A stretch of DNA of 64,000 nucleotides from Escherichia coli (GTDB lineage: Bacteria; Pseudomonadota; Gammaproteobacteria; Enterobacterales; Enterobacteriaceae), in NCBI RefSeq assembly GCF_017348835.2, contig NZ_CP071375.1; one strand, 5' to 3'. Positions 3,385 to 20,565 of the stretch are shown one piece after another. Under the pieces are notes generated by a model. The model had not been told where the DNA came from. It did not search any database and saw only the letters and a list, made by a program, of their open reading frames with translations. Made by a program: the position numbers and the translations under genes. Position 1 is the first letter of the stretch; every line of letters begins with the position of its first letter.

Positions 3385-3515
3385 CCCGACTCCTTTTTTG
3401 TATAGATAAACCATCAGCTGATAGTTTACCTGAAGAATATAGAGAAGTACTTACTTAACATTTTCCCATTTGGTACTATCTAACCCCTTTTCACTATTAA
3501 GAAGTAATGCCTACT

Positions 3516-5549
3516 ATGACTCAAGTCGCGAAGAAAATTCTGGTGACGTGCGCACTGCCGTACGCTAACGGCTCAATCCACCTCGGCCATATGCTGGAGC
3601 ACATCCAGGCTGATGTCTGGGTCCGTTACCAGCGAATGCGCGGCCACGAGGTCAACTTCATCTGCGCCGACGATGCCCACGGTACACCAATCATGCTGAA
3701 AGCTCAGCAGCTTGGTATCACCCCGGAGCAGATGATTGGCGAAATGAGTCAGGAGCATCAGACTGATTTCGCAGGCTTTAACATCAGCTATGACAACTAT
3801 CACTCGACGCACAGCGAAGAGAACCGCCAGTTGTCAGAACTTATCTACTCTCGCCTGAAAGAAAACGGTTTTATTAAAAACCGCACCATCTCTCAGCTGT
3901 ACGATCCGGAAAAAGGCATGTTCCTGCCGGACCGTTTTGTGAAAGGCACCTGCCCGAAATGTAAATCCCCGGATCAATACGGCGATAACTGCGAAGTCTG
4001 CGGTGCGACCTACAGCCCGACTGAACTGATCGAGCCGAAATCGGTGGTTTCTGGCGCCACCCCGGTAATGCGTGATTCTGAACACTTCTTCTTTGATCTG
4101 CCCTCTTTCAGCGAAATGCTGCAGGCATGGACCCGCAGCGGTGCGTTGCAGGAGCAGGTGGCAAATAAAATGCAGGAGTGGTTTGAATCTGGCCTGCAAC
4201 AGTGGGATATCTCCCGCGATGCCCCTTATTTCGGTTTTGAAATTCCGAACGCGCCGGGCAAATATTTCTACGTCTGGCTGGACGCACCGATTGGCTATAT
4301 GGGTTCTTTCAAGAATCTGTGCGATAAGCGCGGCGACAGCGTAAGCTTCGATGAATACTGGAAGAAAGACTCCACCGCCGAGCTGTACCACTTCATCGGT
4401 AAAGATATTGTTTACTTCCACAGCCTGTTCTGGCCTGCAATGCTGGAAGGCAGCAACTTCCGCAAGCCGACCAACCTGTTTGTTCATGGCTATGTGACGG
4501 TGAACGGCGCGAAGATGTCTAAGTCTCGCGGTACCTTTATTAAAGCCAGCACCTGGCTGAATCATTTTGACGCCGACAGCCTGCGTTACTACTACACTGC
4601 GAAACTCTCTTCGCGCATTGATGATATCGATCTCAACCTGGAAGATTTCGTTCAGCGCGTGAATGCCGATATCGTTAATAAAGTGGTTAACCTGGCCTCT
4701 CGTAATGCGGGCTTTATCAACAAGCGTTTTGACGGTGTGCTGGCAAGCGAACTGGCTGACCCGCAGTTGTACAAAACCTTCACTGATGCCGCTGAAGTGA
4801 TTGGTGAAGCGTGGGAAAGCCGCGAATTTGGTAAAGCAGTGCGCGAAATCATGGCGCTGGCTGACCTGGCTAACCGATATGTCGATGAACAGGCTCCGTG
4901 GGTGGTGGCGAAACAGGAAGGCCGCGATGCCGACCTGCAGGCAATTTGCTCAATGGGCATCAACCTGTTCCGCGTGCTGATGACTTACCTGAAACCGGTA
5001 CTGCCGAAACTGACCGAGCGTGCAGAAGCATTCCTCAATACAGAACTGACCTGGAATGGTATCCAGCAACCGCTGCTGGGCCACAAAGTGAATCCGTTCA
5101 AGGCGCTATATAACCGCATCGATATGAAGCAGGTTGAAGCACTGGTGGAAGCGTCTAAAGAAGAAGTGAAAGCAGCTGCCGCGCCAGTTACTGGCCCACT
5201 GGCAGATGATCCGATTCAGGAAACCATCACCTTTGACGACTTCGCCAAAGTTGACCTGCGCGTGGCGCTGATTGAAAACGCAGAGTTTGTTGAAGGTTCT
5301 GACAAACTGCTACGCCTGACGCTGGATCTCGGCGGCGAAAAGCGTAATGTCTTCTCCGGCATTCGTTCTGCTTACCCGGATCCGCAGGCACTGATCGGGC
5401 GTCACACCATTATGGTGGCCAACCTGGCGCCACGTAAAATGCGCTTTGGTATCTCCGAAGGCATGGTAATGGCTGCTGGTCCTGGCGGGAAAGATATTTT
5501 CCTGTTAAGCCCGGATGCTGGTGCTAAACCAGGCCATCAGGTGAAATAA
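3516..5549 (+). CDS. metG: Methionyl-tRNA synthetase
   Basis: Class I aaRS motifs HLGH ([11 protein letters not shown]) and KMSKS (GAKMSKSRG); zinc knuckle [18 protein letters not shown]; start taken at [12 protein letters not shown] inside ORF 3507..5549. Confidence 0.95.
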
Positions 5550-5590: not shown

Positions 5591-5689
5591 AAATTCCTAA
5601 AGTTGTTTTCTTGCGATTTTGTCTCTCTCTAACCCGCATAAATACTGGTAGCATCTGCATTCAACTGGATAAAATTACAGGGATGCAGA

Positions 5690-8600
5690 ATGAGACACTT
5701 TATCTATCAGGACGAAAAATCACATAAATTCTGGGCGGTTGAGCAACAGGATAATGAGCTTCATATTAGATGGGGTAAAGTCGGTACTAACGGGCAAAGT
5801 CAGATAAAAAGTTTTTCAGATGCTGCTGCAGCGGCAAAAGCGGAGCTTAAGCTGATCGCAGAGAAAACGAAAAAAGGCTATGTGGAAAATGCTTCAGCAA
5901 ACGTGCATATCTCCCCCATCACCAAAGCCACTCCTGAAGTTGAAACTTCCCCTGAGAGTAAAAACCAACGCCCGTGGCTGGCTGATGATGCAGTTATTCC
6001 GGTAACTGACGATATTAACCGATTTGCTTTTCCTCATCGCTCTCGCCCCAGAGAGATCAATTATCTGCGCAAAGACGGTGAGATATGGAAGCGTATTGCA
6101 GATAACACCAGGGCATATGATCCCGACAACAATTACCGCTCTTATCCTGAAAACTGGCAGCAGGCTTTTGCTGAGTTACAAAGGCGAATTCTGGATAATC
6201 AACAGACAGGGAGTGCGCAATCTGATGCAGCATTGCTCTGGAGTTTTTGGAACTCTTACTCTGCAGATGAACTGGTCGATGACTTAGTCATTCGCTGTGG
6301 TCTGGAAAGCGCCGTTGAAATCGCCCTTTTTGCCCTTCAACTCAAATATAAACCAGTAAAAGGCGCAGTAACCACCATCATTCCACCTAATCACGAAGCA
6401 GAATCGCTACCTAGTTGGCATCAACGTCTATGTCATCATCTTTCACTCGCTTCAGAAGATGAGTGGCAACGCTGTGTAGATAAAGTACTCACCGCCATTC
6501 CGACGCTATCCCCCGCACGGCAACCTTTTGCGGCGCTACTGCTCCCTGAACGCCCGGATATCGCCCATGCTATAGCTCTACGCTATGCAGACCAAAACGT
6601 CCCGGCGATCACCTGGTTAAGTATGATGGTAAGCGATGATGTTGCCCTGGCCATCCAGGAAATATATGGTTTCCCACCGCTATATAATGATTTCCGCAAA
6701 TATCTGGCTACGTTGCTGGCAAATAATGGAATGCGTGGTGTAAGCCGGATTCTTCTCAAGCTACCTGTCGACTATCCCGTAAAATACACGGACCTTTTCA
6801 CTCACATACACGCCAATGCTGAAGATCTTGTCAAATGGCTATGGAAAACGAATCACCCGGATGCGATTCAAATTCTGATCCTCGGTGTAAATGGCAAGAA
6901 AAAGCACCTGGAATACTTAAGCAAAGCCTGCCAAAAACATCCCGCTGCGGCTATTGCCGCTTATGCTACTTTGCTGGCAATACATGAAAATAATGAGTGG
7001 CGTAAAGCGCTTGTCAAACTGATTACTGCCACGCCAGAGTTAGTATGCGAGGTCATTCCCTGGGTTAATGCTAAGGCGGCAGGCATCTTATCTGAATGTC
7101 GTCCGCTGCCAGTAGCTGAAGAATGTGAATATGCCACTGTGGATATGTTGCCGGAGCTGCTTGTCGCTCCACCGTGGATAATAAATAAGAAAAAGAATGT
7201 CATACCCGTATTTGATTTACCGGTACTTCCCATTCCTGCCGTCACGGATATCACACCAGGAATTACAGAGTTAATCAGTCATACTGACATATCCAGATTC
7301 AGTGAAATCGCGCAATATCAGGCATCACAGCAAACCTTATTTACCGATCTGCCACTAATTGAAAAAGAAAGCTGGGAGACATCTTTCATTCCTTTTACAC
7401 CAGAACAACAAATCCTTTGGCAATTAGGTTTTAATGAATGGCTGCATTGCGAAAATGACTTACATGAAAAAAAATATATACCGCAAAGCGCTGTTGATGC
7501 CTTGTTGCGCTTTGATTTTCCAGCACTAAAAGCTGAGTTTGCGAAATATCACAACAATGCCAACAAAAGCTGGAATCTATCTGCGCTTTGTTACTTACCG
7601 GGACAACAGGCGATCTCATTTCTCAACCAAATAATCATTGAGGAGCGATATTCAGGTGAGAAAGAGATTCTGGCGGTTTTTGGTAGTACGGCCATTCCTG
7701 CGTTTATGACCTGCTTGCAACGAGATCATCAACGCCTGTGGATATTCACCCTTTTTATTGGAGCCAGTGAACTAGCCTTACCAATGGCGCAGCGGTTACA
7801 GAAAAAAATGGGTTACAAGGATGCCGTTAATTGGCTGGCAAATAACCCGCGCCATGCCGCCGCCGGGCTACTGCCTTTGGCGCTGGGCAAACCGTGCCAA
7901 AATCGGGAATATGCCCGCCAGGCACTCCTCCTGCTAGTGAAATTAAACCAGCGAGAAACGATTGAGGAAATCACCCAAGGATATAATCAACCTGATGTTT
8001 TAGCTGCGCTGGCAACATTATTTGATAGCGACCCACTGGAAGAATATCCTGCAAAAATCGCCCCACTGCCCGGCTTTTATCAGTTCCCCTTATGGCGCAG
8101 ACCTCGGCTTAAAAGTAACAACCTGCCTCTGCCAGATGACACTATGCGCCACCTCGGCACAATGTTGAGCTTTCCACGCGACATTACCTCCTACGCTGGG
8201 CTGGCGATCATCAAAGAGACCTTCACCCGCGAATCACTGGCTGACTTTGGCTGGGATCTCTACACGGCATGGACAGAAGCTGGCGCACCCGCAAAAGAGA
8301 ACTGGGCATTTACCTCGCTGGGGATTCTAGGCAATGACGACACCGCGCGTAAACTAACCCCGCTCATCCGCGCCTGGCCGGGTGAATCCCAGCATAAACG
8401 CGCGGTTTACGGGCTGGATGTGTTAGCCAGTATCGGTAGCGACATTGCGCTTATGTTGCTTAATGGCATTGCGCAAAAGATTAAATTCGTTGCATTACAG
8501 GAACATGCCAGCGACAGAATCAATATGGTCGCCGAAAATCGCGGACTGACAATGGCCGAACTGGAAGATCGCCTGGCGCCGGATTTAGGGCTTGATAGCA

Positions 8601-9490
8601 GTGGCTCGCTGATACTGGATTTCGGCCCCCGCAAATTCACCGTTGGTTTTGACGAAACCTTAAAACCTGTAGTGTGCGATGCAAACGGCAAAGTCCTGAA
8701 AGATTTACCTAAGCCAAACCAGAGCGATGATAAAACACTGGCAACTGACGCAGTTAATCTCTTCAAACAGTTGAAAAAAGATGTTCGTGCTATCGCCAGC
8801 CAGCAAATTACCCGTCTGGAACAGGCTATGTGCCAGCGCAGACGCTGGACGGCAGAGCAGTTCCGCCTGTTTCTGGTGGAGCATCCGCTGGTACGTCACT
8901 TAACCCGACGGCTGTTATGGGGAGTATATACTGAGGAAAACACGCTGATTGCCTGCTTCCGGGTCGCAGAAGATAGCACTTACAGCGATGCGCAGGAAGA
9001 GCTATTCACGTTACCAGCAGGAAACATCGGTATTCCGCATGTGCTGGAAATATCCCCTGAATCCGCCGCTGCATTCAGGCAAATTTACGCTGATTACGAA
9101 CTGCTTCCCCCTTTCCAACAGCTCGAGCGAGGTAGCTATCACCTTGCTGATAATGAACGTAATACTCACGAACTGACACGCTGGCAAGGACGGCTTTGCC
9201 AGGCCGGACGCATTGTCGGGCTGGAACGCCGAGGCTGGCAACGTCTGGAAGAAAGCGGCAGCGTTTATGCGATGCGCAAAACAACCCCTCATGGCGATCT
9301 CGAACTTGAAACGGAACCTTTTTCATTAATTTATGGTGAAACGGGGTATGGCGACCAGCTACCGGTTGAAAGCGTAAAAATCACCTCGCCAGATGATCGC
9401 TACGGTAAACAATCCTCACTCACTTTCTCCATGCTCGACGACATCACCGCCAGCGAGCTGATTAACGACATCGAATCACTGTTTGATTAA
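5690..9490 (+). CDS. molR: MolR-family giant protein, copy 1: N-terminal WGR-like module plus conserved C-terminal region (recalled as DUF4132); intact here
   Basis: 1266 aa uninterrupted ORF; N-terminus FIYQDEKSHKFWAVEQQDNELHIRWGKVGTNGQ looks like a WGR domain; C-terminal ~450 aa align with the next two ORFs. Confidence 0.85.
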   Translation: MRHFIYQDEKSHKFWAVEQQDNELHIRWGKVGTNGQSQIKSFSDAAAAAKAELKLIAEKTKKGYVENASANVHISPITKATPEVETSPESKNQRPWLADDAVIPVTDDINRFAFPHRSRPREINYLRKDGEIWKRIADNTRAYDPDNNYRSYPENWQQAFAELQRRILDNQQTGSAQSDAALLWSFWNSYSADELVDDLVIRCGLESAVEIALFALQLKYKPVKGAVTTIIPPNHEAESLPSWHQRLCHHLSLASEDEWQRCVDKVLTAIPTLSPARQPFAALLLPERPDIAHAIALRYADQNVPAITWLSMMVSDDVALAIQEIYGFPPLYNDFRKYLATLLANNGMRGVSRILLKLPVDYPVKYTDLFTHIHANAEDLVKWLWKTNHPDAIQILILGVNGKKKHLEYLSKACQKHPAAAIAAYATLLAIHENNEWRKALVKLITATPELVCEVIPWVNAKAAGILSECRPLPVAEECEYATVDMLPELLVAPPWIINKKKNVIPVFDLPVLPIPAVTDITPGITELISHTDISRFSEIAQYQASQQTLFTDLPLIEKESWETSFIPFTPEQQILWQLGFNEWLHCENDLHEKKYIPQSAVDALLRFDFPALKAEFAKYHNNANKSWNLSALCYLPGQQAISFLNQIIIEERYSGEKEILAVFGSTAIPAFMTCLQRDHQRLWIFTLFIGASELALPMAQRLQKKMGYKDAVNWLANNPRHAAAGLLPLALGKPCQNREYARQALLLLVKLNQRETIEEITQGYNQPDVLAALATLFDSDPLEEYPAKIAPLPGFYQFPLWRRPRLKSNNLPLPDDTMRHLGTMLSFPRDITSYAGLAIIKETFTRESLADFGWDLYTAWTEAGAPAKENWAFTSLGILGNDDTARKLTPLIRAWPGESQHKRAVYGLDVLASIGSDIALMLLNGIAQKIKFVALQEHASDRINMVAENRGLTMAELEDRLAPDLGLDSSGSLILDFGPRKFTVGFDETLKPVVCDANGKVLKDLPKPNQSDDKTLATDAVNLFKQLKKDVRAIASQQITRLEQAMCQRRRWTAEQFRLFLVEHPLVRHLTRRLLWGVYTEENTLIACFRVAEDSTYSDAQEELFTLPAGNIGIPHVLEISPESAAAFRQIYADYELLPPFQQLERGSYHLADNERNTHELTRWQGRLCQAGRIVGLERRGWQRLEESGSVYAMRKTTPHGDLELETEPFSLIYGETGYGDQLPVESVKITSPDDRYGKQSSLTFSMLDDITASELINDIESLFD

Positions 9491-9502
9491 AAGGATTTAA
9501 CA

Positions 9503-12500
9503 ATGAAAACCTATATTTATCAGGACGAAAAATCACATAAATTCTGGGCGGTGGAGCAGCAGAGAAACGAGCTGCATATTACCTGGGGTAAAGTCGGCAC
9601 TAACGGGCAAAGTCAGGTAAAAAGCTTTGCAGATGCTGCGGCGGCGGAAAAAGCGGAACTGAAGCTGATTGCGGAGAAGGTGAAGAAGGGGTATGTGGAG
9701 CAAGTAGACGCTAACGCTCACTCACATGATGCCTCAGCAAAGAAAGTCCTGGTCACAGAGGAAAAAGCCTCAATAAATCACCAGGCAGCAACTAATGGTT
9801 TACCCTGGCTGGCAGATAACGATCCCATTATTCTTCCCCCGAATATTGCCCGCCATGCCCTCAGCCACCGCCTTTGGCCGGGAGAGCCAGTAAAAAAGCC
9901 AACCAAACCCGAGAAACAAAATTTAATTTCCCGATTGGCAAATCGTACTTATCATTATTATAAAAATCTGACTTTCGATTACAGCTCATGCTCTGATGAA
10001 TGGGCTGATGCGATTAGCCAGGCAATCAGCTTAATTAAGGCCCAAAAGACTGAGATACCCGCGCGTACTATGGCGGTACTTACTTTTCTGGAAATATGTT
10101 TTTGTCAGGGCTGGAATGATGAAACCTCACCCGAGTTGCTGGATGAAATTGTAAGCACCTTCGGTATCGAATACGCAACTGAAACTGTCATCTTCTGGTG
10201 GCAAATTGATTTCGATTTTGACTATAAAGATGAACATTTGACTTTCTTTATTAATTATGGAGATAGCAGCAAGGACAGTTATAGAAGGAATAACGACAAA
10301 TTTAGTTTACGTCTGCGTAAACATTTATCACTAGCAGAAGAAGAAGTATGGCAAAATTGCATTGCAAAATTACTCGTTGCGTTACCAGATATATCACTCT
10401 ATCGCCAACCGTTAATTGCCATTTTAATGCCAGAAATACCCGAAGTGGCCCATGAGATCGTACATCGTTTACACCAGGTCGCAGATGTTCCACAACTTGA
10501 AATGTTGAAACTGGTAGCGACAGATCCATTCACGCTCGAAATACTGGAGAACTATCAATACATTGATGTATTTAACACCTATGGTGCCAGTTGGTCAGCT
10601 ACGGTATTACGGGAGCAAGGTATAGCGGCACTGGCTCGCCTGGCTCCCTATGCTGAAGAAGATAATTGCGGTGACGTACTGAAATGTATTAATCATCCGT
10701 TGGCCATTACGGCACTCATCGAAGCCGCCGATACTAATAAACGCTGTTATGAACGACTAATAAAAAGTGCCGAAAATTTTCCTTCTGCAACGATAGTGGC
10801 ATTAGCCGAAGCATTGGTAAAAAAAGATGATAAACGCAAACATATGTTGCTGGTTTCATTACTTAATGCAAATCCTTTATTGGTCGAAAAATTAGTCATC
10901 GGATTATCGTCGCAAGCGGCAAATTTATTGCAACAATGTCAGCAATTGCTGAATAGTCGCAATGAAGATTTTGCAAACTCAGAAATTCTACCAATGGTAC
11001 TAGTCTCGCCGCCCTGGGAAACTCAAAATAAAAATAACGACAACAGTCCTGTGGGTAAATACCCGGCGAAAATCCCCCCTTTGCCGTTGTTTTATCAACC
11101 TCCATTATGGACTCGCCCGAAACTCAAAAATAGCAGCAAGGTACTGCCAGATAGCGCCCTCCTCCACCTCGGTGAAATGCTCCGCTTCCCTCAGGAAGAG
11201 GCTCTGTATCCGGGATTATTGCAGGTGAAAGATGCCTGTACCGCCGACTCACTGGCTGAATTTGCCTGGGATCTGTTTACCGCCTGGCTGACTGCGGGCG
11301 CACCGTCGAAAGAGAGTTGGGCGTTCACTGCGTTAGGCGTTCTTGGTAACGATGACACCGCTCGCAAACTGACGCCATTAATCCGCGCCTGGCCTGGTGA
11401 ATCCCAGCATAAACGCGCCACCGTCGGGCTTGATATCCTCGCCGCTATCGGTAGTGATATCGCCCTGATGCAGCTTAACGGCATTGCTCAGAAACTGAAA
11501 TTCAAAGCTTTACAGGAGCGGGCGAAAGAGAAAATTGCCGACATTGCTGAAAGCCGCGAACTCACGGTGGCGGAGCTTGAAGATCGGTTAGCACCAGATC
11601 TCGGTCTGGATGATAACGGTTCGTTGCTGCTGGATTTCGGCTCACGCCAGTTCACCGTCAGCTTTGATGAAACCTTAAAACCGTTTGTGCGTGATGTTTC
11701 TGGCAGCCGTCTGAAAGACCTGCCCAAACCAAACAAAAGCGATGATGAATCACAGGCGAACGATGCTGTTAACCGCTACAAACTGCTGAAAAAAGATGCG
11801 CGTACCGTCGCCGCCCAGCAGGTAGCAAGGCTGGAATCCGCCATGTGCCTGCGTCGCCGCTGGTCACCGGAAAACTTTCAGCTCTTCCTGGTTGAGCATC
11901 CGCTGGTTCGCCACTTAACCCGCCGTCTGATTTGGGGCGTTTATAGCGCCGAAAACCAGCTGCAGGCTTGCTTTCGCGTAGCGGAAGATAACAGCTACAG
12001 CACCGCTGACGATGATCTTTTCACCCTGCCGGAAGGCGATATCTCTATTGGTATTCCTCACGTTCTGGAAATATCACCGACGGATGCTGCCGCCTTTGGT
12101 CAGCTTTTTGCCGACTACGAACTGTTACCACCGTTCCGCCAGCTTGACCGTAACAGTTACGCCCTGACAGAAGCCGAGCGCAACGCCAGCGAACTGACCC
12201 GCTGGGCAGGCAGAAAATGCCCGAGCGGTCGGGTAATGGGGCTGGCGAATAAAGGCTGGATAAAGGGCGAACCACAGGATGGAGGCTGGATCGGCTGGAT
12301 GATCAAACCTCTGGGCCGCTGGTCGTTAATCATGGAAATCGATGAAGGCTTTGCAGTGGGTATGTCACCAGCCGAACTTAGCGCTGAGCAGCTCTTAAGC
12401 AAGCTGTGGCTATGGGAAGGCAAAGCGGAAAGCTATGGCTGGGGGAGTAATTCAACACAGGAAGCGCAGCTCTCCGTACTCGATGCCATCACCGCCAGCG

Positions 12501-12535
12501 AGCTAATTAACGATATTGAAGCCCTGTTTGAATAA
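9503..12535 (+). CDS. MolR-family paralog, copy 2: WGR-like N-terminus plus conserved C-terminal region
   Basis: 1010 aa ORF starting 13 nt after copy 1; N-terminal 65 aa nearly identical to copy 1, with a 34 nt identical DNA run at 5705-5738 and 9518-9551; C-terminus ends ...ITASELINDIEALFE like copy 1. Confidence 0.85.
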   Translation: MKTYIYQDEKSHKFWAVEQQRNELHITWGKVGTNGQSQVKSFADAAAAEKAELKLIAEKVKKGYVEQVDANAHSHDASAKKVLVTEEKASINHQAATNGLPWLADNDPIILPPNIARHALSHRLWPGEPVKKPTKPEKQNLISRLANRTYHYYKNLTFDYSSCSDEWADAISQAISLIKAQKTEIPARTMAVLTFLEICFCQGWNDETSPELLDEIVSTFGIEYATETVIFWWQIDFDFDYKDEHLTFFINYGDSSKDSYRRNNDKFSLRLRKHLSLAEEEVWQNCIAKLLVALPDISLYRQPLIAILMPEIPEVAHEIVHRLHQVADVPQLEMLKLVATDPFTLEILENYQYIDVFNTYGASWSATVLREQGIAALARLAPYAEEDNCGDVLKCINHPLAITALIEAADTNKRCYERLIKSAENFPSATIVALAEALVKKDDKRKHMLLVSLLNANPLLVEKLVIGLSSQAANLLQQCQQLLNSRNEDFANSEILPMVLVSPPWETQNKNNDNSPVGKYPAKIPPLPLFYQPPLWTRPKLKNSSKVLPDSALLHLGEMLRFPQEEALYPGLLQVKDACTADSLAEFAWDLFTAWLTAGAPSKESWAFTALGVLGNDDTARKLTPLIRAWPGESQHKRATVGLDILAAIGSDIALMQLNGIAQKLKFKALQERAKEKIADIAESRELTVAELEDRLAPDLGLDDNGSLLLDFGSRQFTVSFDETLKPFVRDVSGSRLKDLPKPNKSDDESQANDAVNRYKLLKKDARTVAAQQVARLESAMCLRRRWSPENFQLFLVEHPLVRHLTRRLIWGVYSAENQLQACFRVAEDNSYSTADDDLFTLPEGDISIGIPHVLEISPTDAAAFGQLFADYELLPPFRQLDRNSYALTEAERNASELTRWAGRKCPSGRVMGLANKGWIKGEPQDGGWIGWMIKPLGRWSLIMEIDEGFAVGMSPAELSAEQLLSKLWLWEGKAESYGWGSNSTQEAQLSVLDAITASELINDIEALFE

Positions 12536-12544
12536 GGAAAGAGC

Positions 12545-15500
12545 ATGGACAAGGAATTACCGTGGCTGGCTGATAACGCCCAACTGGAACTGAAATATAA
12601 AAAGGGTAAAACACCACTCAGCCATCGCAATTGGCCGGGCGAACCAGTGCCTGTTATCACTGAAAGCATCATTCAGACACTGGGTGATGAATTGCTACAA
12701 AAAGCTGAGAAGAAAAAAAACATTGTCTGGCGTTATGAAAATTTTTCACTGGAGTGGCAGTCCGCCATCACGCAGGCCATCAACTTGATCGGCGAACACA
12801 AACCCTCAATCCCGGCCCGGACAATGGCGGCGCTAGCCTGTATCGCGCAAAATGACAGCCAACAGTTGCTCGACGAAATCGTCCAACAAGAGGGGCTGGA
12901 ATATGCGACTGAGGTGGTGATTGCACGCCAGTTTATTGCGCGGTGTTATGAGAGTGATCCTCTGGTAGTGACATTGCAGTATCAGGACGAGGATTATGGC
13001 TATGGTTATCGCTCAGAAACCTATAACGAATTCGATCTCCGACTGCGTAAGCATCTCTCTCTGGCAGAGGAAAGCTGCTGGCAGCGTTGCGCCGACAAAC
13101 TCATTGCCGCACTACCAGGAATAACCAAAGTTCGCCGCCCTTTTATTGCGCTGATCCTCCCGGAAAAACCAGAAATAGCCAATGAGTTGGTAGGCCTTGA
13201 ATGCCCGCGAACTCATTTTCATTCTAAGGAGTGGTTAAAAGTTGTTGCTAATGACCCCACAGCGGTGAGAAAACTCGAACACTACTGGAGCCAGGATATA
13301 TTTAGCGATCGAGAAGCCAGCTACATGTCGCATGAAAACCACTTCGGCTACGCGGCCTGCGCCTCCCTTTTGCGCGAACAAGGACTGGCAGCCGTTCCGC
13401 GCCTGGCAATGTATGCTCATAAAGAAGATTGCGGCAGTCTGCTGGTACAAATTAACCATCCGCAAGTCATCCGCACCTTGCTGTTAGTTGCTGATAAAAA
13501 CAAACCCAGCCTGCAACGTGTGGCTAAATACAGTAAAAACTTCCCCCATGCGACGCTCGCCGCACTGGCAGAACTGCTGGCGTTAAAAGAACCACCAGCC
13601 CGCCCTGGTTATCCAATCATCGAAGACAAAAAGCTGCCTGCACAGCAAAAAGCTCGAGATGAATACTGGCGTACGCTGTTACAAACGCTGATGGCATCGC
13701 AGCCACAACTGGCAGCAGAAGTGATGCCGTGGTTAAGTACTCAAGCCAGGGCAGTGCTGAAGAGTTATTTATCGGCACTGCCAAAACCGGTTATTGATGG
13801 CACCGATAACAGCAATCTGCCTGAAATCCTCGTTTCACCACCGTGGCGTAGTAAGAAAAAAATGACAGCTCCACGTCTTGATTTGGCACGGCTCGAATTA
13901 ACTCCGCAAGTTTACTGGCAACCAGGCGAACGAGAGAGGCTTGCCGCCACTGAGCCTGCCCGTTATTTCAGCACGGAATCTCTTGCGGAACGCATGGAAC
14001 AAAAAAGTGGACGAGTTGTATTACAGGAACTGGGTTTTGGGGATGATGTATGGCTGTTTTTGAATTATATACTCCCCGGAAAACTGGATGCTGCACGCAA
14101 TTCACTCATTGTTGAGTGGCATTACTACCAGGGGCGGGTTGAAGAGATCCTGAATGGCTGGAACTCCCCGGAAGCACAATTAGCAGAACAGGCGCTTCGC
14201 AGCGGTCACGTAGAAGCGTTAATTAACATATGGGAAAATGACAACTACTCACGTTATCGTCCGGAAAAGAGTGTCTGGAACCTGTATTTATTGGCACAGT
14301 TGCCGCGTGAGATGGCTTTGACCTTCTGGCTGCGTATCAATGAGAAAAAACATCTGTTCGCGGGTGAGGACTATTTTCTCAGTATCCTCGGATTGGATGC
14401 GCTACCAGGTCTGCTGTTGGCTTTTTCACATCGTCCAAAAGAAACATTTCCGTTAATTTTAAATTTTGGCGCAACAGAACTGGCCCTGCCTGTTGCCCGC
14501 GTCTGGCGACGTTTCGCGGTGCAGCGTGATCTGGCTCGCCAGTGGATTTTACAATGGCCGGAACATACGGCTACTGCACTTATCCCTCTTGTCTTCACCA
14601 AATCTAGCGATAAAAGCGAAGCTGCATTACTTGCCCTGCGTTTACTTTACGAACATGGGCATGGCGAATTGCTACAAACTGTAGCCAATCGTTGGCAGCG
14701 TACAGATCTATGGCCTGCCCTGGAACAATTACTTAAACAGAGTCCAATAGAGATTTACCCGGCACGCATTCCAAAAGCCCCTGATTTCTGGCATCCGCAA
14801 ATGTGGTCCAGGCCGCGCCTTATCACTAATAATCAAACTGTTACCGATGACGCTCTGGAAATTATCGGCGAAATGCTGCGCTTTACCCAGGGGGGACGTT
14901 TTTATAGCTGGCTGGAACAACTGAAAACGTTCTGCCAGCCACAAACGCTGGCAGCTTTTGCCTGGGATCTCTTCACTGCGTGGCAACAAGCTGGTGCCCC
15001 CGCAAAAGACAACTGGGCATTTCTGGCGTTAAGTCTCTTTGGTGACGAAAGCACGGCACGGGATCTGACGACACAGATCCTCGCCTGGCCACAAGAAGGC
15101 AAATCTGCCCGTGCTGTCAGCGGCCTGAACATCCTTACCCTGATGAATAATGATATGGCGCTGATACAGCTGCATCATATATCGCAACGGGCTAAATCCC
15201 GCCCCTTACGTGATAACGCGGCGGAATTTCTTCAGGTGGTCGCAGAAAATCGCGGGCTAAGCCAGGAAGAGCTAGCGGACAGATTAGTCCCAACCCTGGG
15301 CCTTGATGATCCGCAGGCGTTGAGTTTTGATTTTGGTCCCCGGCAGTTTACCGTTCGCTTCGATGAAAACCTCAACCCGGTTATCTTTGATCAGCAAAAC
15401 GTTCGCCAGAAAAGCGTTCCCCGGTTGCGCGCCGATGACGATCAACTGAAAGCGCCCGAGGCACTGGCCCGACTAAAAGGGCTAAAAAAAGATGCCACTC

Positions 15501-16177
15501 AGGTGAGCAAAAACCTGCTCCCGCGTCTTGAAACGGCCCTACGTACCACCCGACGCTGGTCGCTGGCAGATTTTCATTCTCTGTTTGTTAATCATCCCTT
15601 TACCCGTCTGGTTACCCAGCGATTAATATGGGGGGCTTATCCGGCAAATGAACCGCGTTGTTTACTCAACGCCTTTCGTGTGGCCGCAGAGGGGGAGTTC
15701 TGCAATGCGCAAGATGAGCCCATTGGCCTGCCTGCGGATGCTCTGATTGGCATTGCCCACCCGTTAGAAATGGCAGCAGAAATGCGCAGTGAATTTGCAC
15801 AGCTTTTTGCCGATTACGAAATTATGCCGCCTTTTCGCCAGTTGGCGCGGCGCACGGTGCTGCTGACGCCTGACGAGTCAGCCAGTAACAGCCTGACTCG
15901 CTGGGAAGGTAAATCCGCTACCGTTGGGCAACTTATGGGAATGCGATACAAAGGCTGGGAGTCAGGCTATGAGGACGCATTTGTCTATGACTTAAGTGAA
16001 TACCGGCTGGTCCTTAAGTTTTCACCCGGTTTTAACCACTACAATGTTGATAGCAAAGCGCTAATGAGCTTCCGTTCTCTTCGAGTGTACCGTGACAATA
16101 AATCCGTCACTTTTGCCGAACTTGATGTGTTTGATTTGAGTGAGGCGTTAAGCGCACCTGACGTCATTTTCCATTAA
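12545..16177 (+). CDS. yehI: MolR-family paralog, copy 3: conserved C-terminal region but no WGR module
   Basis: 1210 aa ORF starting 10 nt after copy 2; shares the conserved blocks (e.g. ...FAWDLFTAW...GAPAK.NWAF...) but has a different N-terminus and C-terminal tail. Confidence 0.85.
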   Translation: MDKELPWLADNAQLELKYKKGKTPLSHRNWPGEPVPVITESIIQTLGDELLQKAEKKKNIVWRYENFSLEWQSAITQAINLIGEHKPSIPARTMAALACIAQNDSQQLLDEIVQQEGLEYATEVVIARQFIARCYESDPLVVTLQYQDEDYGYGYRSETYNEFDLRLRKHLSLAEESCWQRCADKLIAALPGITKVRRPFIALILPEKPEIANELVGLECPRTHFHSKEWLKVVANDPTAVRKLEHYWSQDIFSDREASYMSHENHFGYAACASLLREQGLAAVPRLAMYAHKEDCGSLLVQINHPQVIRTLLLVADKNKPSLQRVAKYSKNFPHATLAALAELLALKEPPARPGYPIIEDKKLPAQQKARDEYWRTLLQTLMASQPQLAAEVMPWLSTQARAVLKSYLSALPKPVIDGTDNSNLPEILVSPPWRSKKKMTAPRLDLARLELTPQVYWQPGERERLAATEPARYFSTESLAERMEQKSGRVVLQELGFGDDVWLFLNYILPGKLDAARNSLIVEWHYYQGRVEEILNGWNSPEAQLAEQALRSGHVEALINIWENDNYSRYRPEKSVWNLYLLAQLPREMALTFWLRINEKKHLFAGEDYFLSILGLDALPGLLLAFSHRPKETFPLILNFGATELALPVARVWRRFAVQRDLARQWILQWPEHTATALIPLVFTKSSDKSEAALLALRLLYEHGHGELLQTVANRWQRTDLWPALEQLLKQSPIEIYPARIPKAPDFWHPQMWSRPRLITNNQTVTDDALEIIGEMLRFTQGGRFYSWLEQLKTFCQPQTLAAFAWDLFTAWQQAGAPAKDNWAFLALSLFGDESTARDLTTQILAWPQEGKSARAVSGLNILTLMNNDMALIQLHHISQRAKSRPLRDNAAEFLQVVAENRGLSQEELADRLVPTLGLDDPQALSFDFGPRQFTVRFDENLNPVIFDQQNVRQKSVPRLRADDDQLKAPEALARLKGLKKDATQVSKNLLPRLETALRTTRRWSLADFHSLFVNHPFTRLVTQRLIWGAYPANEPRCLLNAFRVAAEGEFCNAQDEPIGLPADALIGIAHPLEMAAEMRSEFAQLFADYEIMPPFRQLARRTVLLTPDESASNSLTRWEGKSATVGQLMGMRYKGWESGYEDAFVYDLSEYRLVLKFSPGFNHYNVDSKALMSFRSLRVYRDNKSVTFAELDVFDLSEALSAPDVIFH

Positions 16178-16237: not shown

Positions 16238-16555
16238 ATGATCGTGCAAAAAGAGCTGGTTGCTATTTACGATTATGAGGTCCCTGTACCTGAAGATCCG
16301 TTTTCCTTCAGACTTGAGATCCATAAATGCTCTGAATTATTTACAGGTTCCGTCTATCGACTGGAGCGATTCCGGCTACATCCAACATTTCGTCAACGTG
16401 ATCGAGAAGATGCTGACCCGCTAATAAATGATGCGTTGATTTATATAAGAGATGAGTGTATTGATGAGCGGAAATTACGAGGTGAATCACCTGAAACTGT
16501 AATAGCAATTTTTAATCGTGAACTACAGAATATATTCAACCAAGAAATAGAATAA
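16238..16555 (+). CDS. yehK: Small cytoplasmic protein of unknown function
   Basis: 105 aa ORF downstream of yehI, preceded by a stem-loop (CGGGCAGT-GATGCAA-CTGCCCG at 16186-16208). Confidence 0.75.
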   Translation: MIVQKELVAIYDYEVPVPEDPFSFRLEIHKCSELFTGSVYRLERFRLHPTFRQRDREDADPLINDALIYIRDECIDERKLRGESPETVIAIFNRELQNIFNQEIE

Positions 16556-16992: not shown

Positions 16993-17077
16993 GTTGGAAC
17001 ACGATGTTGCACAGGCTGTGGTGTTAGGCCTGAAAATAGTAAATAAAAGAACCTGCCTCACCAGCAGGTTTTTTTAT
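16993..17077 (+). ncRNA. orzO: Candidate antitoxin small RNA (OrzO-like), ~85 nt
   Basis: Predicted start ~7 nt after the consensus -10; 5' end GTTGGAACACGATGTTGCAC repeats 16827-16846 (GTTGGACCACGATGTTGCAC, one mismatch) inside the toxin 5' UTR; ends at terminator ACCTGC-CTCACCA-GCAGGTTTTTTT (17050-17077). Confidence 0.55.
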
Positions 17078-17186: not shown

Positions 17187-18275
17187 ATGTCACCGCAGAA
17201 TAATCATCTGCAGCGTCCGCCTGCTGCTGTGTTATACGCCGATGAACTGGCAAAATTAAAACAAAATGATACCGCACCTTGCCCGCCCGGTTGGCAGTTA
17301 AGTTTGCCTGCGGCCCGTGCTTTTATCCTTGGCGATAGCGCGCAAAATATTAGCCGTAAAGTGGTGATTAGTCCCTCCGCTGTCGAACGTATGTTAGTCA
17401 CTCTTGCCACCGGACGCGGTTTGATGTTGGTGGGGGAACCTGGCAGCGCAAAATCTCTCCTGTCTGAATTACTGGCAACCGCTATTAGCGGCGATGCCGG
17501 GTTAACCATCCAGGGCGGCGCATCTACTACCGAAGATCAAATCAAGTACGGCTTGAACTACGCCCTGCTTATCAATCATGGTCCATCAACGGAAGCGCTG
17601 GTCCCTGCCCCGCTTTACCAGGGAATGCGCGACGGCAAAATCGTCCGTTTTGAAGAGATAACGCGTACACCGCTGGAAGTGCAAGACTGTCTGTTAGGTA
17701 TGCTTTCTGACAGGGTGATGACGGTGCCGGAACTCACTGGTGAAGCCAGTCAGCTCTATGCGCGAGAAGGCTTTAATATTATTGCCACTGCCAATACCCG
17801 CGATCGCGGCGTCAATGAAATGAGTGCTGCGCTAAAGCGTCGCTTCGATTTTGAAACTGTCTTTCCGATTATGGATTTCGTCCAGGAGCTGGAGCTTGTC
17901 GCCAGTGCTTCGGCGCGTTTGCTGGCCCATAGCGGTATTCCGCATAAAGTGCCTGACGCGGTACTGGAGTTACTGGTCCGCACCTTCCGCGATCTGCGTG
18001 CCAACGGCGAAAAGAAAACGTCAATGGATACACTAACAGCGATTATGTCCACCGCTGAAGCCGTGAACGTGGCCCACGCTGTGGGCGTCCGCGCCTGGTT
18101 TTTAGCGAATCGCGCAGGTGAGCCAGCCGATCTGGTGGACTGTATTGCCGGAACCATCGTCAAAGATAACGAAGAAGATCGCGCTCGTCTGCGCCGTTAC
18201 TTCGAACAGCGAGTCGCCATACATAAAGAAGCTCACTGGCAGGCTTATTATCAAGCCCGCCACCGCCTGCCGTGA
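17187..18275 (+). CDS. yehL: MoxR-type AAA+ ATPase
   Basis: Walker A LVGEPGSAKS; Walker-B-like IVRFEEITR (Glu where Asp is usual); sensor-1-like IIATANTRD; RRF arginine finger; start taken at MSPQNNH inside ORF 17121..18275. Confidence 0.85.
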   Translation: MSPQNNHLQRPPAAVLYADELAKLKQNDTAPCPPGWQLSLPAARAFILGDSAQNISRKVVISPSAVERMLVTLATGRGLMLVGEPGSAKSLLSELLATAISGDAGLTIQGGASTTEDQIKYGLNYALLINHGPSTEALVPAPLYQGMRDGKIVRFEEITRTPLEVQDCLLGMLSDRVMTVPELTGEASQLYAREGFNIIATANTRDRGVNEMSAALKRRFDFETVFPIMDFVQELELVASASARLLAHSGIPHKVPDAVLELLVRTFRDLRANGEKKTSMDTLTAIMSTAEAVNVAHAVGVRAWFLANRAGEPADLVDCIAGTIVKDNEEDRARLRRYFEQRVAIHKEAHWQAYYQARHRLP

Positions 18276-18285
18276 GGAAAGATGC

Positions 18286-20565
18286 ATGAGCGAGCCGTTA
18301 ATTGTCGGCATCCGGCATCATAGCCCGGCCTGCGCCCGGCTGGTGAAATCGTTAATCGAAAGCCAGCGGCCACGATACGTGTTGATTGAAGGCCCGGCTG
18401 ATTTTAATGACCGGGTATACGAACTGTTTTTAGCCCACCAGCTTCCGGTAGCTATTTACAGTTATTGCCAGTATCAGGACGGTACGGCCCCCGGGCGCGG
18501 TGCCTGGACGCCATTTGCTGAATTTTCGCCGGAGTGGCAGGCGCTACAAGCCGCACGTCGTATTCAGGCACAAACTTACTTCATCGATTTGCCTTGCTGG
18601 GCACAGAGTGAAGAAGAGGACGATTCGCCTGATACGCAAGATGAAAGCCAGGCCTTACTGCTGCGTGCCACCCGCATGGATAACAGCGATACCCTGTGGG
18701 ATCACTTGTTCGAAGATGAAAGCCAGCAAACTGCATTACCCTCTGCGCTGGCGCACTATTTTGCCCAACTGCGGGGCGACTCCCCCGGAGATGCACTCAA
18801 TCGTCAGCGCGAAGCCTTTATGGCCCGCTGGATTGGATGGGCGATGCAGCAAAATAATGGCGACGTGTTAGTTGTCTGCGGTGGCTGGCACGCTCCGGCA
18901 CTGGCAAAAATGTGGCGCGAATGTCCGCAGGAAATTAACACGCCAGAATTGCCGTCGCTGGCAGATGCCGTTACAGGTTGTTATCTCACACCCTACAGTG
19001 AAAAGCGCCTTGATGTGCTGGCAGGATACCTTTCCGGAATGCCTGCCCCGGTCTGGCAAAGCTGGTGCTGGCAGTGGGGCTTACAGCAGGCGGGAGAACA
19101 ACTGCTAAAAACGGTTCTTACCCGTTTGCGCCAACACCACTTGCCTGCTTCGACCGCGGATATGGCTGCCGCTCATCTGCATGCGATGGCGCTGGCACAG
19201 TTGCGCGGACATAAACTACCGTTACGCATTGACTGGCTGGATGCCATAGCAGGCTCGCTGATTAAAGAAGCCCTGAACGCGCCGTTGCCGTGGAGCTATC
19301 GCGGCGTTATTCATCCCGACACCGATCCGATTCTGCTAACGTTGATAGACACATTAGCGGGTGACGGATTCGGTAAACTTGCCCCTTCTACGCCACAACC
19401 GCCTCTGCCAAAAGATGTCACCTGCGAACTGGAACGTACCGCAATCTCTCTTCCGGCGGAGCTTACCTTAAATCGCTTTAACCCCAATGGACTAGCGCAA
19501 AGTCAGGTGTTACATCGGCTGGCAATACTGGAGATCCCAGGGATTGTACGCCAGCAGGGAAGCACACTGACACTTGCAGGCAACGGTGAAGAACGCTGGA
19601 AATTAACCCGCCCGCTTAGCCAGCATGCGGCATTGATTGAGGCCGCCTGCTTTGGTGCCACACTCCAGGAAGCCGCACGCCATAAATTAGAAGCCGATAT
19701 GCTGGACGCGGGTGGAATCGGCAGTATCACCACATGTCTTAGCCAGGCGGCGTTAGCGGGTCTGGCGTCCTTCAGTCAACAATTACTGGAGCAACTCACA
19801 TTATTAATCGCCCAGGAAAATCAATTTGCCGAAATGGGCCAGGCGCTGGAAGTGCTATATGCCTTATGGCGGCTGGATGAAATTAGCGGTATGCAAGGCG
19901 CGCAGATATTACAAACGACGTTATGCGCGGCTATCGATCGCACGCTCTGGCTGTGTGAATCCAACGGCAAACCGGATGAAAAGGAGTTTCACGCTCACCT
20001 GCATAGCTGGCAGGCGCTTTGCCATATCCTGCGCGATCTACATAGCGGCGTTAATTTACCCGGCGTTTCTCTTTCTGCGGCGGTAGCCTTACTGGAGCGA
20101 CGCAGTCAGGCAATCCATGCCCCGGCGCTGGATCGCGGCGCGGCTCTTGGCGCACTGATGCGTCTGGAACATCCCAACGCCAGTGCCGAAGCGGCGCTGA
20201 CGATGCTGGCACAGTTTTTCCCGGCACAATCCGGCGAAGCGCTGCACGGTTTGCTGGCGCTGGCCCGCCATCAACTGGCCTGTCAGCCGGCATTTATCGC
20301 CGGTTTCAGCAGTCATTTAAATCAACTAAGTGATGCCGATTTTATCAATGCCCTGCCCGATTTACGCGCGGCGATGGCCTGGCTACCGCCACGAGAACGC
20401 GGGACGCTGGCGCATCAGGTGCTTGAACATTATCAACTGGCGCAACTTCCCGTTTCGGCGCTGCAAATGCCGTTGCATTGCCCACCACAAGCCATTGCAC
20501 ATCATCAACAACTCGAACAGCAGGCACTGGCATCGCTGCAAAACTGGGGAGTTTTCCATGTCTGA
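18286..20565 (+). CDS. yehM: Large protein of unknown function in the MoxR/VWA operon
   Basis: 759 aa from MSEPLIVGIRHHSP, starting 11 nt after the yehL stop; ORF-track start 18118 overlaps yehL and is judged an over-extension. No motif I can name. Confidence 0.8.
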   Translation: MSEPLIVGIRHHSPACARLVKSLIESQRPRYVLIEGPADFNDRVYELFLAHQLPVAIYSYCQYQDGTAPGRGAWTPFAEFSPEWQALQAARRIQAQTYFIDLPCWAQSEEEDDSPDTQDESQALLLRATRMDNSDTLWDHLFEDESQQTALPSALAHYFAQLRGDSPGDALNRQREAFMARWIGWAMQQNNGDVLVVCGGWHAPALAKMWRECPQEINTPELPSLADAVTGCYLTPYSEKRLDVLAGYLSGMPAPVWQSWCWQWGLQQAGEQLLKTVLTRLRQHHLPASTADMAAAHLHAMALAQLRGHKLPLRIDWLDAIAGSLIKEALNAPLPWSYRGVIHPDTDPILLTLIDTLAGDGFGKLAPSTPQPPLPKDVTCELERTAISLPAELTLNRFNPNGLAQSQVLHRLAILEIPGIVRQQGSTLTLAGNGEERWKLTRPLSQHAALIEAACFGATLQEAARHKLEADMLDAGGIGSITTCLSQAALAGLASFSQQLLEQLTLLIAQENQFAEMGQALEVLYALWRLDEISGMQGAQILQTTLCAAIDRTLWLCESNGKPDEKEFHAHLHSWQALCHILRDLHSGVNLPGVSLSAAVALLERRSQAIHAPALDRGAALGALMRLEHPNASAEAALTMLAQFFPAQSGEALHGLLALARHQLACQPAFIAGFSSHLNQLSDADFINALPDLRAAMAWLPPRERGTLAHQVLEHYQLAQLPVSALQMPLHCPPQAIAHHQQLEQQALASLQNWGVFHV

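Follow-up and report, generated by a model that had tools for sequence, protein, structure and literature searches.

MoxR-type AAA+ ATPases paired with vWA proteins commonly mature metalloenzymes (PMC3893208), and MoxR–vWA cores have also been proposed as parts of counter-invader systems (PMC12839542). YehL, one of only two MoxR ATPases in Escherichia coli K-12, is the type member of the YehL subfamily, one of seven MoxR subfamilies in a classification that PMC3893208 cites as its ref. 1, and its role is unknown (PMC3893208). In K-12, the genes molR (yehH) and yehI lie between metG and yehK–yehLMPQ; molR, yehI and yehLMPQ have long been genes of unknown function in the best-studied bacterium. 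Here we analyse the same chromosomal locus in a 64,000-nucleotide (nt) stretch of E. coli DNA (contig NZ_CP071375.1; 'the window'), in which three giant genes of the DUF4132 family stand in tandem at positions 5690–16177. We propose that the giants are interchangeable, non-catalytic recognition or adaptor subunits of a machine made of YehL, YehM, YehP and YehQ. We hold this reading as a whole with modest confidence, which is much higher for the evolutionary anatomy and lower for the mechanism.

The original prediction for this region was a tandem of three MolR-family paralogues on one strand, encoding 1266, 1010 and 1210 amino acids (aa), and open reading frames (ORFs) of these lengths are present. 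The spacers, given there as 13 and 10 nt, are in fact 12 and 9 nt long.

5690–9490, plus strand: copy 1 (gene g1, protein c1), intact ORF of 1266 aa
9491–9502, plus strand: g1–g2 spacer AAGGATTTAACA, 12 nt, with a Shine–Dalgarno-like AAGGA
9503–12535, plus strand: copy 2 (gene g2, protein c2), positional ortholog of K-12 molR, 1010 aa, short allele
12536–12544, plus strand: g2–g3 spacer GGAAAGAGC, 9 nt, a purine-rich, ribosome-binding-like stretch
12545–16177, plus strand: copy 3 (gene g3, protein c3), yehI, 1210 aa

The locus thus holds the metG-linked molR-like gene (g1), molR (g2) and yehI (g3) of E. coli, all three intact. Positions 5690–16177 are 100% identical to E. coli PE164, for which RefSeq annotates the three genes as intact and gives the order metG, DUF4132 protein, DUF4132 protein, yehI, yehK, yehL, yehM, yehP, yehQ; the expectation that copy 1 is intact is borne out in both genomes. 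The genes and their Pfam families are already known and annotated, and the three-gene form is common, so that the array itself is not new. Among 5426 complete E. coli genomes, 936 cover at least 80% of the three-gene query.

The three proteins are built on one modular plan, in which an optional WGR domain and a variable N-terminal alpha-solenoid (N module) are followed by an optional middle module (M) and a conserved C-terminal module (C) comprising a HEAT-like part and DUF4132. Copies 1 and 3 carry the M module, of about 260 aa, and copy 2 does not.

aa 1–67 (5690–5890), plus strand: copy 1, WGR
aa 68–516, plus strand: copy 1, N alpha-solenoid
aa 517–778 (7238–8023), plus strand: copy 1, M module
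aa 779–1266 (8024–9487), plus strand: copy 1, C module, Pfam DUF4132 at aa 1000–1183
aa 1–67 (9503–9703), plus strand: copy 2, WGR
aa 68–512 (9704–11038), plus strand: copy 2, divergent N solenoid, M module absent
aa 513–1010 (11039–12532), plus strand: copy 2, C module, Pfam DUF4132 at aa 734–919
aa 1–440, plus strand: copy 3, N solenoid, no WGR ahead of it
aa 441–731, plus strand: copy 3, M module
aa 732–1210, plus strand: copy 3, C module, Pfam DUF4132 at about aa 954–1138

Profile searches support the predicted family and its division of domains. DUF4132 (PF13569) was detected by Pfam in c1 (E = 1.9e-51), c2 (E = 8.6e-52) and c3 (E = 3.3e-46), with matches that span nearly the whole model, and WGR (PF05406) in c1 (E = 8.6e-19) and c2 (E = 2.1e-17) only, copy 3 keeping DUF4132 without WGR. 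The homology is not a matter of short shared motifs, since pairwise alignment follows it over the full length: c1 and c2 share 36% identity in their N halves and 61% in the last ~490 aa (blastp), c1 and c3 30.5% over 1268 columns, and c2 and c3 40–44%. Across the family, which comprises 8648 clusters at 50% identity (E ≤ 1e-3), the consensus architecture starts with WGR. In the literature that mentions DUF4132 we found nothing that addresses its function.

An AlphaFold model of c2, computed from a 62-sequence alignment (predicted local distance difference test (pLDDT) score 90.7; predicted template-modelling (pTM) score 0.78), places the WGR domain at aa 1–67, a disordered linker at aa 71–96 and the alpha-solenoid at aa ~135–500. 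An extended linker with conserved PPW and YPAKIPPLP motifs follows the solenoid, and after it come a HEAT-like helical part (aa ~550–694) and an alpha/beta DUF4132 part that closes in a conserved C-terminal helix. Residues invariant across the family (c2 numbering) include W811, R825, H853, P877, Q880, W919 and, in the terminal helix, S999–E1000. Fold searches with the giant matched only WGR domains (2ra8 and the WGR domains of PARP1 and PARP3) and generic HEAT/ARM solenoids, so that copies 1 and 2 combine a significant PF05406 match with a WGR fold. Pfam and fold searches detected no catalytic domain in the giants and, in particular, no ADP-ribosyltransferase domain beside the WGR. A fold search with DUF4132 only returned no informative solved relative beyond WGR and HEAT, and a profile search against Protein Data Bank (PDB) sequences matched nothing.

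Directly after the array, once yehK has been passed, come the four genes whose products would form the core of the proposed machine.

17187–18275, plus strand: yehL, MoxR-type AAA+ ATPase with Walker A GEPGSAKS and typical MoxR motifs
18286–20565, plus strand: yehM, Pfam DUF5682 (E = 1e-97)
20558–21694, plus strand: yehP, vWA protein with an intact metal-ion-dependent adhesion site (MIDAS; DQSGS ... GGGT ... SDF)
21691–23694, plus strand: yehQ, SWIM zinc-finger protein

With a Walker A ATPase gene and a MIDAS vWA gene adjoining the giants, the locus belongs by its gene content with the YehL-subfamily MoxR/vWA systems. This arrangement recurs far beyond E. coli. Searching one genome per species for relatives of the C module, we obtained 37 loci, and in 24 of them homologues of yehLMPQ lie directly downstream of the giants, which number 1 to 4 in tandem. 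The linked loci belong to Enterobacterales (Escherichia, Klebsiella and Erwinia), Betaproteobacteria (Rhizobacter and Ramlibacter), Steroidobacter, an alphaproteobacterial metagenome-assembled genome (MAG), Mycolicibacterium/Mycobacterium, a Propionibacteriaceae MAG, Myxococcales, Glycomyces and Bacillota. There is one giant per locus in Erwinia and the mycobacteria, two in Rhizobacter and Klebsiella grimontii, three in Escherichia, Klebsiella oxytoca and Klebsiella spallanzanii, and four in Ramlibacter and Glycomyces, and a neighbour-joining tree of the DUF4132 region shows that these expansions are lineage-specific. The C modules of E. coli and mycobacteria share 54–58% aa identity.

In the mechanism we propose, the conserved C module would dock onto the core of YehL (MoxR AAA+), YehP (vWA-MIDAS), YehM and YehQ, and the invariant glutamate of the terminal helix (E1000 in c2) could possibly serve the MIDAS of YehP as a ligand. 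What is bound would be chosen by the variable N and M solenoids, together with the WGR where there is one. The most plausible ligand of the WGR, by analogy with PARPs, would be a nucleic-acid end or break. Expression would rise with DNA damage.

The same neighbourhood might instead suggest a classical role, with MolR as a regulator of molybdate metabolism, or with the MoxR and vWA proteins inserting a metal cofactor in the manner of a chelatase and the giant serving as the large substrate-binding subunit. The molR name, which goes back to Lee et al. 1990 as cited in PMC8533742, and the common part of MoxR–vWA pairs in metalloenzyme maturation (PMC3893208) would fit such a role, as would a weak match of YehP to a putative cobaltochelatase vWA region, which at E = 6e-4 is far below the curated cutoff. 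The giants themselves, however, are modelled with a WGR, a HEAT solenoid and DUF4132, and in sequence and fold searches, which return WGR and HEAT solenoids only, they show no homology to CobN or BchH, the large subunits of Co and Mg chelatases. No molybdenum-related genes were seen in the mapped neighbourhoods, and K-12, in which molR is a pseudogene, uses molybdate normally. In Deinococcus, moreover, no co-variation was seen between molybdenum genes and the DUF4132 operon (PMC8533742). We consider a classical role very improbable.

Alleles of the giants differ strongly by module. Splitting the proteins into modules by alignment columns gave the following aa identities within Escherichia.

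g1: WGR 78–91%; N 73–90%; M in classes with ~70% between them; C 89–94%
g2: WGR 82–97%; N in at least four classes, 38–60% between classes; M ~57–67% between classes, absent in the short allele; C 90–100%
g3: no WGR; N 80–97%; M of the N96 class 51–53% to the rest; C 94–97%
g2 N class 1: K-12, 4621, FY10 and E. whittamii
g2 N class 2: ST131 and MOD1
g2 N class 3: N96
g2 N class 4: the short form, in this window and in Escherichia sp. E1V33

The N classes of g2 are as divergent from each other as Escherichia is from Klebsiella, or more so. Identity can also change abruptly within one protein: N96 and ST131 share 99% in M and 52% in N, and FY10 and RM9245 95% in N and 60% in M. These sequence comparisons indicate that N and M each come in discrete allele classes, far apart in sequence, and that the two modules are recombined independently of each other while the ends on either side stay conserved. 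In the 5426 complete genomes, the copy-1-type N/M region (5900–8200) occurs in 1643 (30%), in several identity bands between 84 and 100% nt, and the short N allele of c2 in 410, nearly all at 99% nt or above. The K-12-type N/M region of g2 covers at least 80% of its length in 3390 genomes and is partial in about 1590 more.

Synonymous divergence (dS) between c1 alleles is 0.27–0.64, compared with ~0.12 for flanking genes, and so the giant alleles are older than the core genome around them. The ratio of nonsynonymous to synonymous divergence (dN/dS) is 0.15–0.33 for the giants, 0.07–0.13 for yehL and yehM and 0.02 for metG, and the value for the giants means that they are under purifying selection. 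GC content is 41–47% in the variable modules, 51–54% in the C modules and ~55% in yehLMPQ.

Two side observations concern the composition and divergence of this region. GC content dips to 41–42% at 7200–7799, in the M module of copy 1, and at 10200–10799, in the N solenoid of copy 2. The neighbouring metG (3507–5549) differs from that of K-12 by a dS of 0.116 at a dN/dS of 0.02. This dS seems high for an E. coli core gene, and it may be due to linkage to the polymorphic locus or to a divergent strain background.

Such diversity invites a role in biological conflict, against phages or mobile elements, in which the polymorphic giants would be exchangeable sensors of invaders that trigger the MoxR–vWA–SWIM core, and the many classes of N and M cassettes would persist in the population through diversifying or frequency-dependent selection. 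Several features accord with this explanation: N and M classes only 38–60% identical within one genus and reshuffled between conserved ends; copy numbers that range from 1 to 4 through lineage-specific expansions; a patchy phyletic spread in which the C modules of E. coli and mycobacteria keep 54–58% aa identity; frequent pseudogenes, insertion sequence (IS) insertions and deletions; AT-richer variable modules; and the counter-invader systems proposed for MoxR–vWA cores (PMC12839542). Against it, the dN/dS of the giants carries no gene-wide signal of positive selection, their metG-adjoining position is fixed in two genera, and the proteins gave no sign of an effector domain such as a nuclease, protease or TIR. 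PADLOC-DB 2.0 returned 0 families for the nine proteins scanned, c1, c2, c3, YehK, YehL and YehM among them, and the flanks examined in other taxa yielded nothing beyond unspecific helicase, topoisomerase and subtilase cross-hits, which came from genes of housekeeping type and not from defence islands; we therefore rejected assignment to a known defence system. Nor did tblastn find the giants in any genome of the phage collection. On this evidence we think a conflict system unlikely. Literature on WGR, SWIM, MoxR, vWA and phage defence yielded nothing about this system.

Origins on mobile elements were considered and rejected. Several PHROG families (phrog_20839, 28101, 36602, 36295, 30700, 33984 and 29006) match E. 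coli Yeh proteins end to end; a phage origin was discarded because these matches look like host sequence in prophage calls, which they probably are, and because no phage genome was hit. Plasmid carriage was set aside in turn, as only 31 records were found, mostly megaplasmids or mislabelled chromosomes.

At the K-12 position there are only two giants, yehI and a molR that is annotated as a pseudogene ('frameshifted; internal stop'), as the original prediction stated; its implied equation of copy 1 with K-12 molR is mistaken. From metG across the intergenic region to nt 197 of copy 1, K-12 and the window agree at ~96–97%; beyond this point similarity is not detectable until it resumes, at 96.4%, at position 11061 (copy 2 codon ~519) and runs on through yehI and yehK. 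At sites of fixed difference between g1 and g2, K-12-type molR is g1-type at nt 8 and 15 of the coding sequence and g2-type at 16 of 17 sites from nt 168 to 254. K-12 molR thus keeps the promoter of copy 1, its LexA box and its first ~165 nt, and the rest of copy 1 is absent from K-12. The C module of copy 2 is 95% identical in aa and 96.4% in nt to that of K-12-type MolR; the N solenoids share 42% aa, and the ~250-aa M module is absent from copy 2. By these comparisons K-12 molR is a g1::g2 fusion, with a crossover inside the WGR-coding repeat and a loss of ~3.8 kb, and its body belongs to the middle-copy lineage.

The event appears not to be unique. In four two-gene E. coli strains the switch from g1 to g2 falls at different points within the WGR region, and two-gene K. 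grimontii relates in the same way to three-gene K. oxytoca; because the switch points differ between strains and Klebsiella provides a parallel, deletion of g1 is recurrent. The alignments thus identify the WGR-coding repeat as a crossover site that repeatedly deletes g1 and gives the two-gene, K-12-type locus. Over its 1210 residues, copy 3 has 97.5% aa identity with the YehI protein of E. coli RM9245, which has a K-12-type two-gene locus, and its gene differs from K-12 yehI by a dN of 0.016 and a dS of 0.067. Its locus, its high full-length identity and its annotation in PE164 all identify it as yehI.

It had also been proposed that the array bears signs of recent duplication or gene conversion, so that the copies would either be young or have been homogenised along their whole length, C-terminal blocks included, by ongoing conversion. 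The observations behind this proposal are real. The 34-nt identical run reported for copies 1 and 2 extends to 35 nt (5705–5739 and 9518–9552) and has p = 0.04 in a permutation test; a 23-nt run in the C module, GGTGAATCCCAGCATAAACGCGC, is exact at 8381–8403 and 11396–11418, with 0 matches expected in shuffles; and synonymous identity between the copies is raised over the first 40–60 codons. The copies are nevertheless only 30–61% identical in protein, and their C modules tell of great age. Over the C-terminal 1440 nt, among Escherichia lineages, g1 sequences share 88–93% nt with each other and g2 sequences 90–95%, whereas g1 and g2 share ~63%. In Klebsiella each copy has an ortholog at the metG-adjoining locus, and the C modules of its g1 and g2 are each nearer their own Escherichia counterpart than the other copy. 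Because the C modules group by copy across two genera, the triplication predates the split of Escherichia and Klebsiella, and a recent duplication is ruled out both by this grouping and by the pairwise identities.

The WGR-coding end behaves differently. In its first 186 nt, g1 and g2 share 82–87% within Escherichia and 80–85% within Klebsiella, compared with 70–79% between the genera, whichever copies are compared; synonymous-codon identity of c1 and c2 is 0.81 over the first 40 codons against mostly 0.3–0.6 elsewhere. Since it is the genus, not the copy, that sets how the WGR sequences group, the ~190-nt WGR-coding repeat of g1 and g2 evolves in concert, a pattern that supports gene conversion there. 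In this genome, however, the WGR regions of g1 and g2 are 84% identical, below the 96% that g2 shares with its ortholog in Escherichia sp. E1V33, which makes the conversion old, on an evolutionary time scale. The 23-nt run in the C module has another explanation. It encodes GESQHKRA inside the conserved motif LIRAWPGESQHKRA, a stretch with at most 2 synonymous differences among g1 and g2 of all Escherichia examined; its p value is 0.02 with a global shuffle and 0.12 when local conservation is kept, and synonymous identity in the C module is at the background of 0.3–0.6. Conversion of the C module in this strain was rejected on these grounds. The proposal of conversion thus stands for the 5′ ~190 nt and falls for the C module; recent duplication and C-module conversion are refuted by the sequences, and a young or wholly homogenised array is very improbable.

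A predicted element just ahead of copy 1 suggests a regulatory link between the locus and DNA damage.

5665–5680, plus strand: putative LexA (SOS) box CTGGATAAAATTACAG, starting 25 nt upstream of the copy-1 ATG

This box has one mismatch to the CTGT-N8-ACAG core, is one of only 2 relaxed matches in the 64-kb window and recurs, its position unchanged, in every Escherichia, K. oxytoca and K. grimontii locus examined. Consistent with this, molR is among the LexA-regulated genes with a known SOS box (PMC6590174); its promoter, which is the same as that of copy 1, is also activated by BglJ–RcsB (PMC3950696). In Deinococcus, the DUF4132 gene DRA0166 and the WGR gene DR2173 are strongly de-repressed on depletion of DdrO, the DNA-damage repressor (PMC8533742). 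Neither the g1–g2 nor the g2–g3 junction holds a terminator-like site, and each spacer holds a ribosome-binding-like sequence; co-transcription of the three giants is therefore likely, and the spacers suggest coupled translation as well. In other phyla, a scan for LexA, Cheo and alphaproteobacterial SOS boxes gave none that was convincing, in a search that was crude and made with uncertain start codons.

One could read this wiring as that of a DNA-damage factor, in which SOS-induced WGR proteins recognise breaks or gaps and bring in the MoxR–vWA remodeller, which would remove protein complexes from damaged DNA or build them there. SOS control, the radiation–desiccation response (RDR) regulon of Deinococcus and the PARP-like WGR all agree with that. 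The difficulty is that YehI and many other family members have no WGR, that extreme allelic diversity is unexpected for a repair factor, that LexA-type boxes are unconvincing in other taxa (by the crude scan) and that K-12 and O157:H7 manage without intact WGR copies. We know of no DNA-damage phenotype for these genes. A repair factor of this kind therefore appears improbable. Also unlikely, in our estimate, is a broader form that would merge damage and conflict: an SOS-wired surveillance system in which up to four WGR/solenoid/DUF4132 giants, as exchangeable specificity subunits, feed a MoxR-AAA+/vWA/SWIM/DUF5682 engine, with the N and M classes under balancing selection. If true, E. coli and members of several phyla would carry an immune or genome-integrity system of a new class.

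Several observations tell against our own reading of the giants as recognition or adaptor subunits of YehLMPQ. Pseudogenes are common among the WGR-bearing copies, as in K-12, O157:H7 and O139, and this frequency of decay means that they are dispensable in many lineages. In E. coli O157:H7, for example, copy 1 has an internal stop and copy 2, which is the same short allele as in the window (≥99% nt), a frameshift, while yehI is intact. The docking of the C module and the MIDAS ligand are ideas drawn from conservation only, and in the literature we found no physical or genetic interaction between a giant and YehLMPQ. Thirteen of the 37 loci have no detectable yehL neighbour, some of them with short flanks or very divergent sequences, and the convincing LexA-type boxes are confined to Escherichia and Klebsiella (again by the crude scan). 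Outside Enterobacteriaceae, in the few loci examined, the flanks are housekeeping genes, with topA, cysB, mfd, mazG and lysA in Erwinia, mycobacteria, a Propionibacteriaceae MAG and a Myxococcales MAG. Finally, the searches detected neither an effector nor an enzymatic domain in any part of the operon, so that the proposal does not account for the output of the machine.

Other strains and taxa add several observations. In Mycolicibacterium and Mycobacterium the single-giant system adjoins mfd, the transcription-repair coupling factor gene, and mazG, on the opposite strand; the adjacency may be coincidence or may be tied to the DNA-damage link. An IS1-bounded deletion in E. coli 50EVAW takes the three giants, yehK and the 5′ end of yehL, and in E. 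coli HS1496 the middle gene is truncated by an IS26/aac(3)-IIe resistance module, in line with the TnMB1860 insertion described in ST131 (PMC9334617). Sequences resembling E. coli copies 1 and 2 in a Collinsella sp. MAG contig and in a 248-bp Alkalicoccobacillus contig (the latter 96% identical) are probably assembly contamination.

Between yehI and yehL lie yehK and, between yehK and yehL, a type I toxin–antitoxin pair.

16238–16555, plus strand: yehK, 105 aa
16665–16754, minus strand: ZorO-like 29-aa ORF MDTLTQKLTVLIAVLELLVALLRLIDLLK
17000–17075, plus strand: OrzO-P antitoxin small RNA (Rfam RF02083, 99.9 bits)

YehK had no NCBIfam or PADLOC family hit. Its gene is frameshifted in N96, R10 and ST131, and FY10 and W13-16 carry an annotated 117-aa hypothetical ORF instead. 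K-12 is without this ~320-nt zorO/orzO segment (PMC2887945).

The locus points to an uncharacterised, widespread, SOS-linked MoxR–vWA system in E. coli. Searching the literature, we found neither the fusion origin of K-12 molR, nor module-level allele classes and their reshuffling, nor the coupling of 1–4 DUF4132 giants to yehLMPQ across phyla, nor any published description of such giants as partners of YehL-subfamily systems. The corrected orthology, in which K-12 molR joins copy 1 to the middle copy, bears on the choice of strain: K-12 and O157:H7 are poor models because their WGR-bearing copies are pseudogenes, and PE164-like strains, with all three genes intact, can be used to approach the system. 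The handles on offer are the SOS control, the C module as the likely docking part and the N and M cassettes as the likely specificity part. If the giants are indeed swappable recognition subunits of a MoxR–vWA machine, a family of thousands of sequence clusters would be opened up.

Set beside known systems, the locus is closest to its K-12 counterpart, from which it differs in having three intact genes where K-12 has two, one of them the frameshifted fusion molR, and no ortholog of copy 1; copy 2 differs from K-12 molR in the class of its N solenoid and in its missing M module. Among YehL-subfamily MoxR AAA+/vWA systems it is set apart by the giant array that yehL, yehM, yehP and yehQ directly follow, here and across phyla. 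PARP1, PARP2 and PARP3 share the WGR domain, but their ADP-ribosyltransferase catalytic domain, zinc fingers and BRCT domain are all absent from the giants. The flagellin locus fliC and the type I restriction locus hsdS, whose centres are swappable, are alike in having conserved ends that flank divergent central cassettes exchanged by recombination; they encode unrelated protein families, and the giants appear to be cytoplasmic. The BchI–BchD–BchH and CobS–CobT–CobN chelatases follow a similar three-part logic, in which a MoxR-like AAA+ protein and a vWA-MIDAS protein are joined by a third protein of ~1200 aa. Their large subunit has the CobN/BchH fold, whereas the giants combine an alpha-solenoid with DUF4132, and the present locus has several paralogous large subunits and, in addition, a DUF5682 and a SWIM protein.

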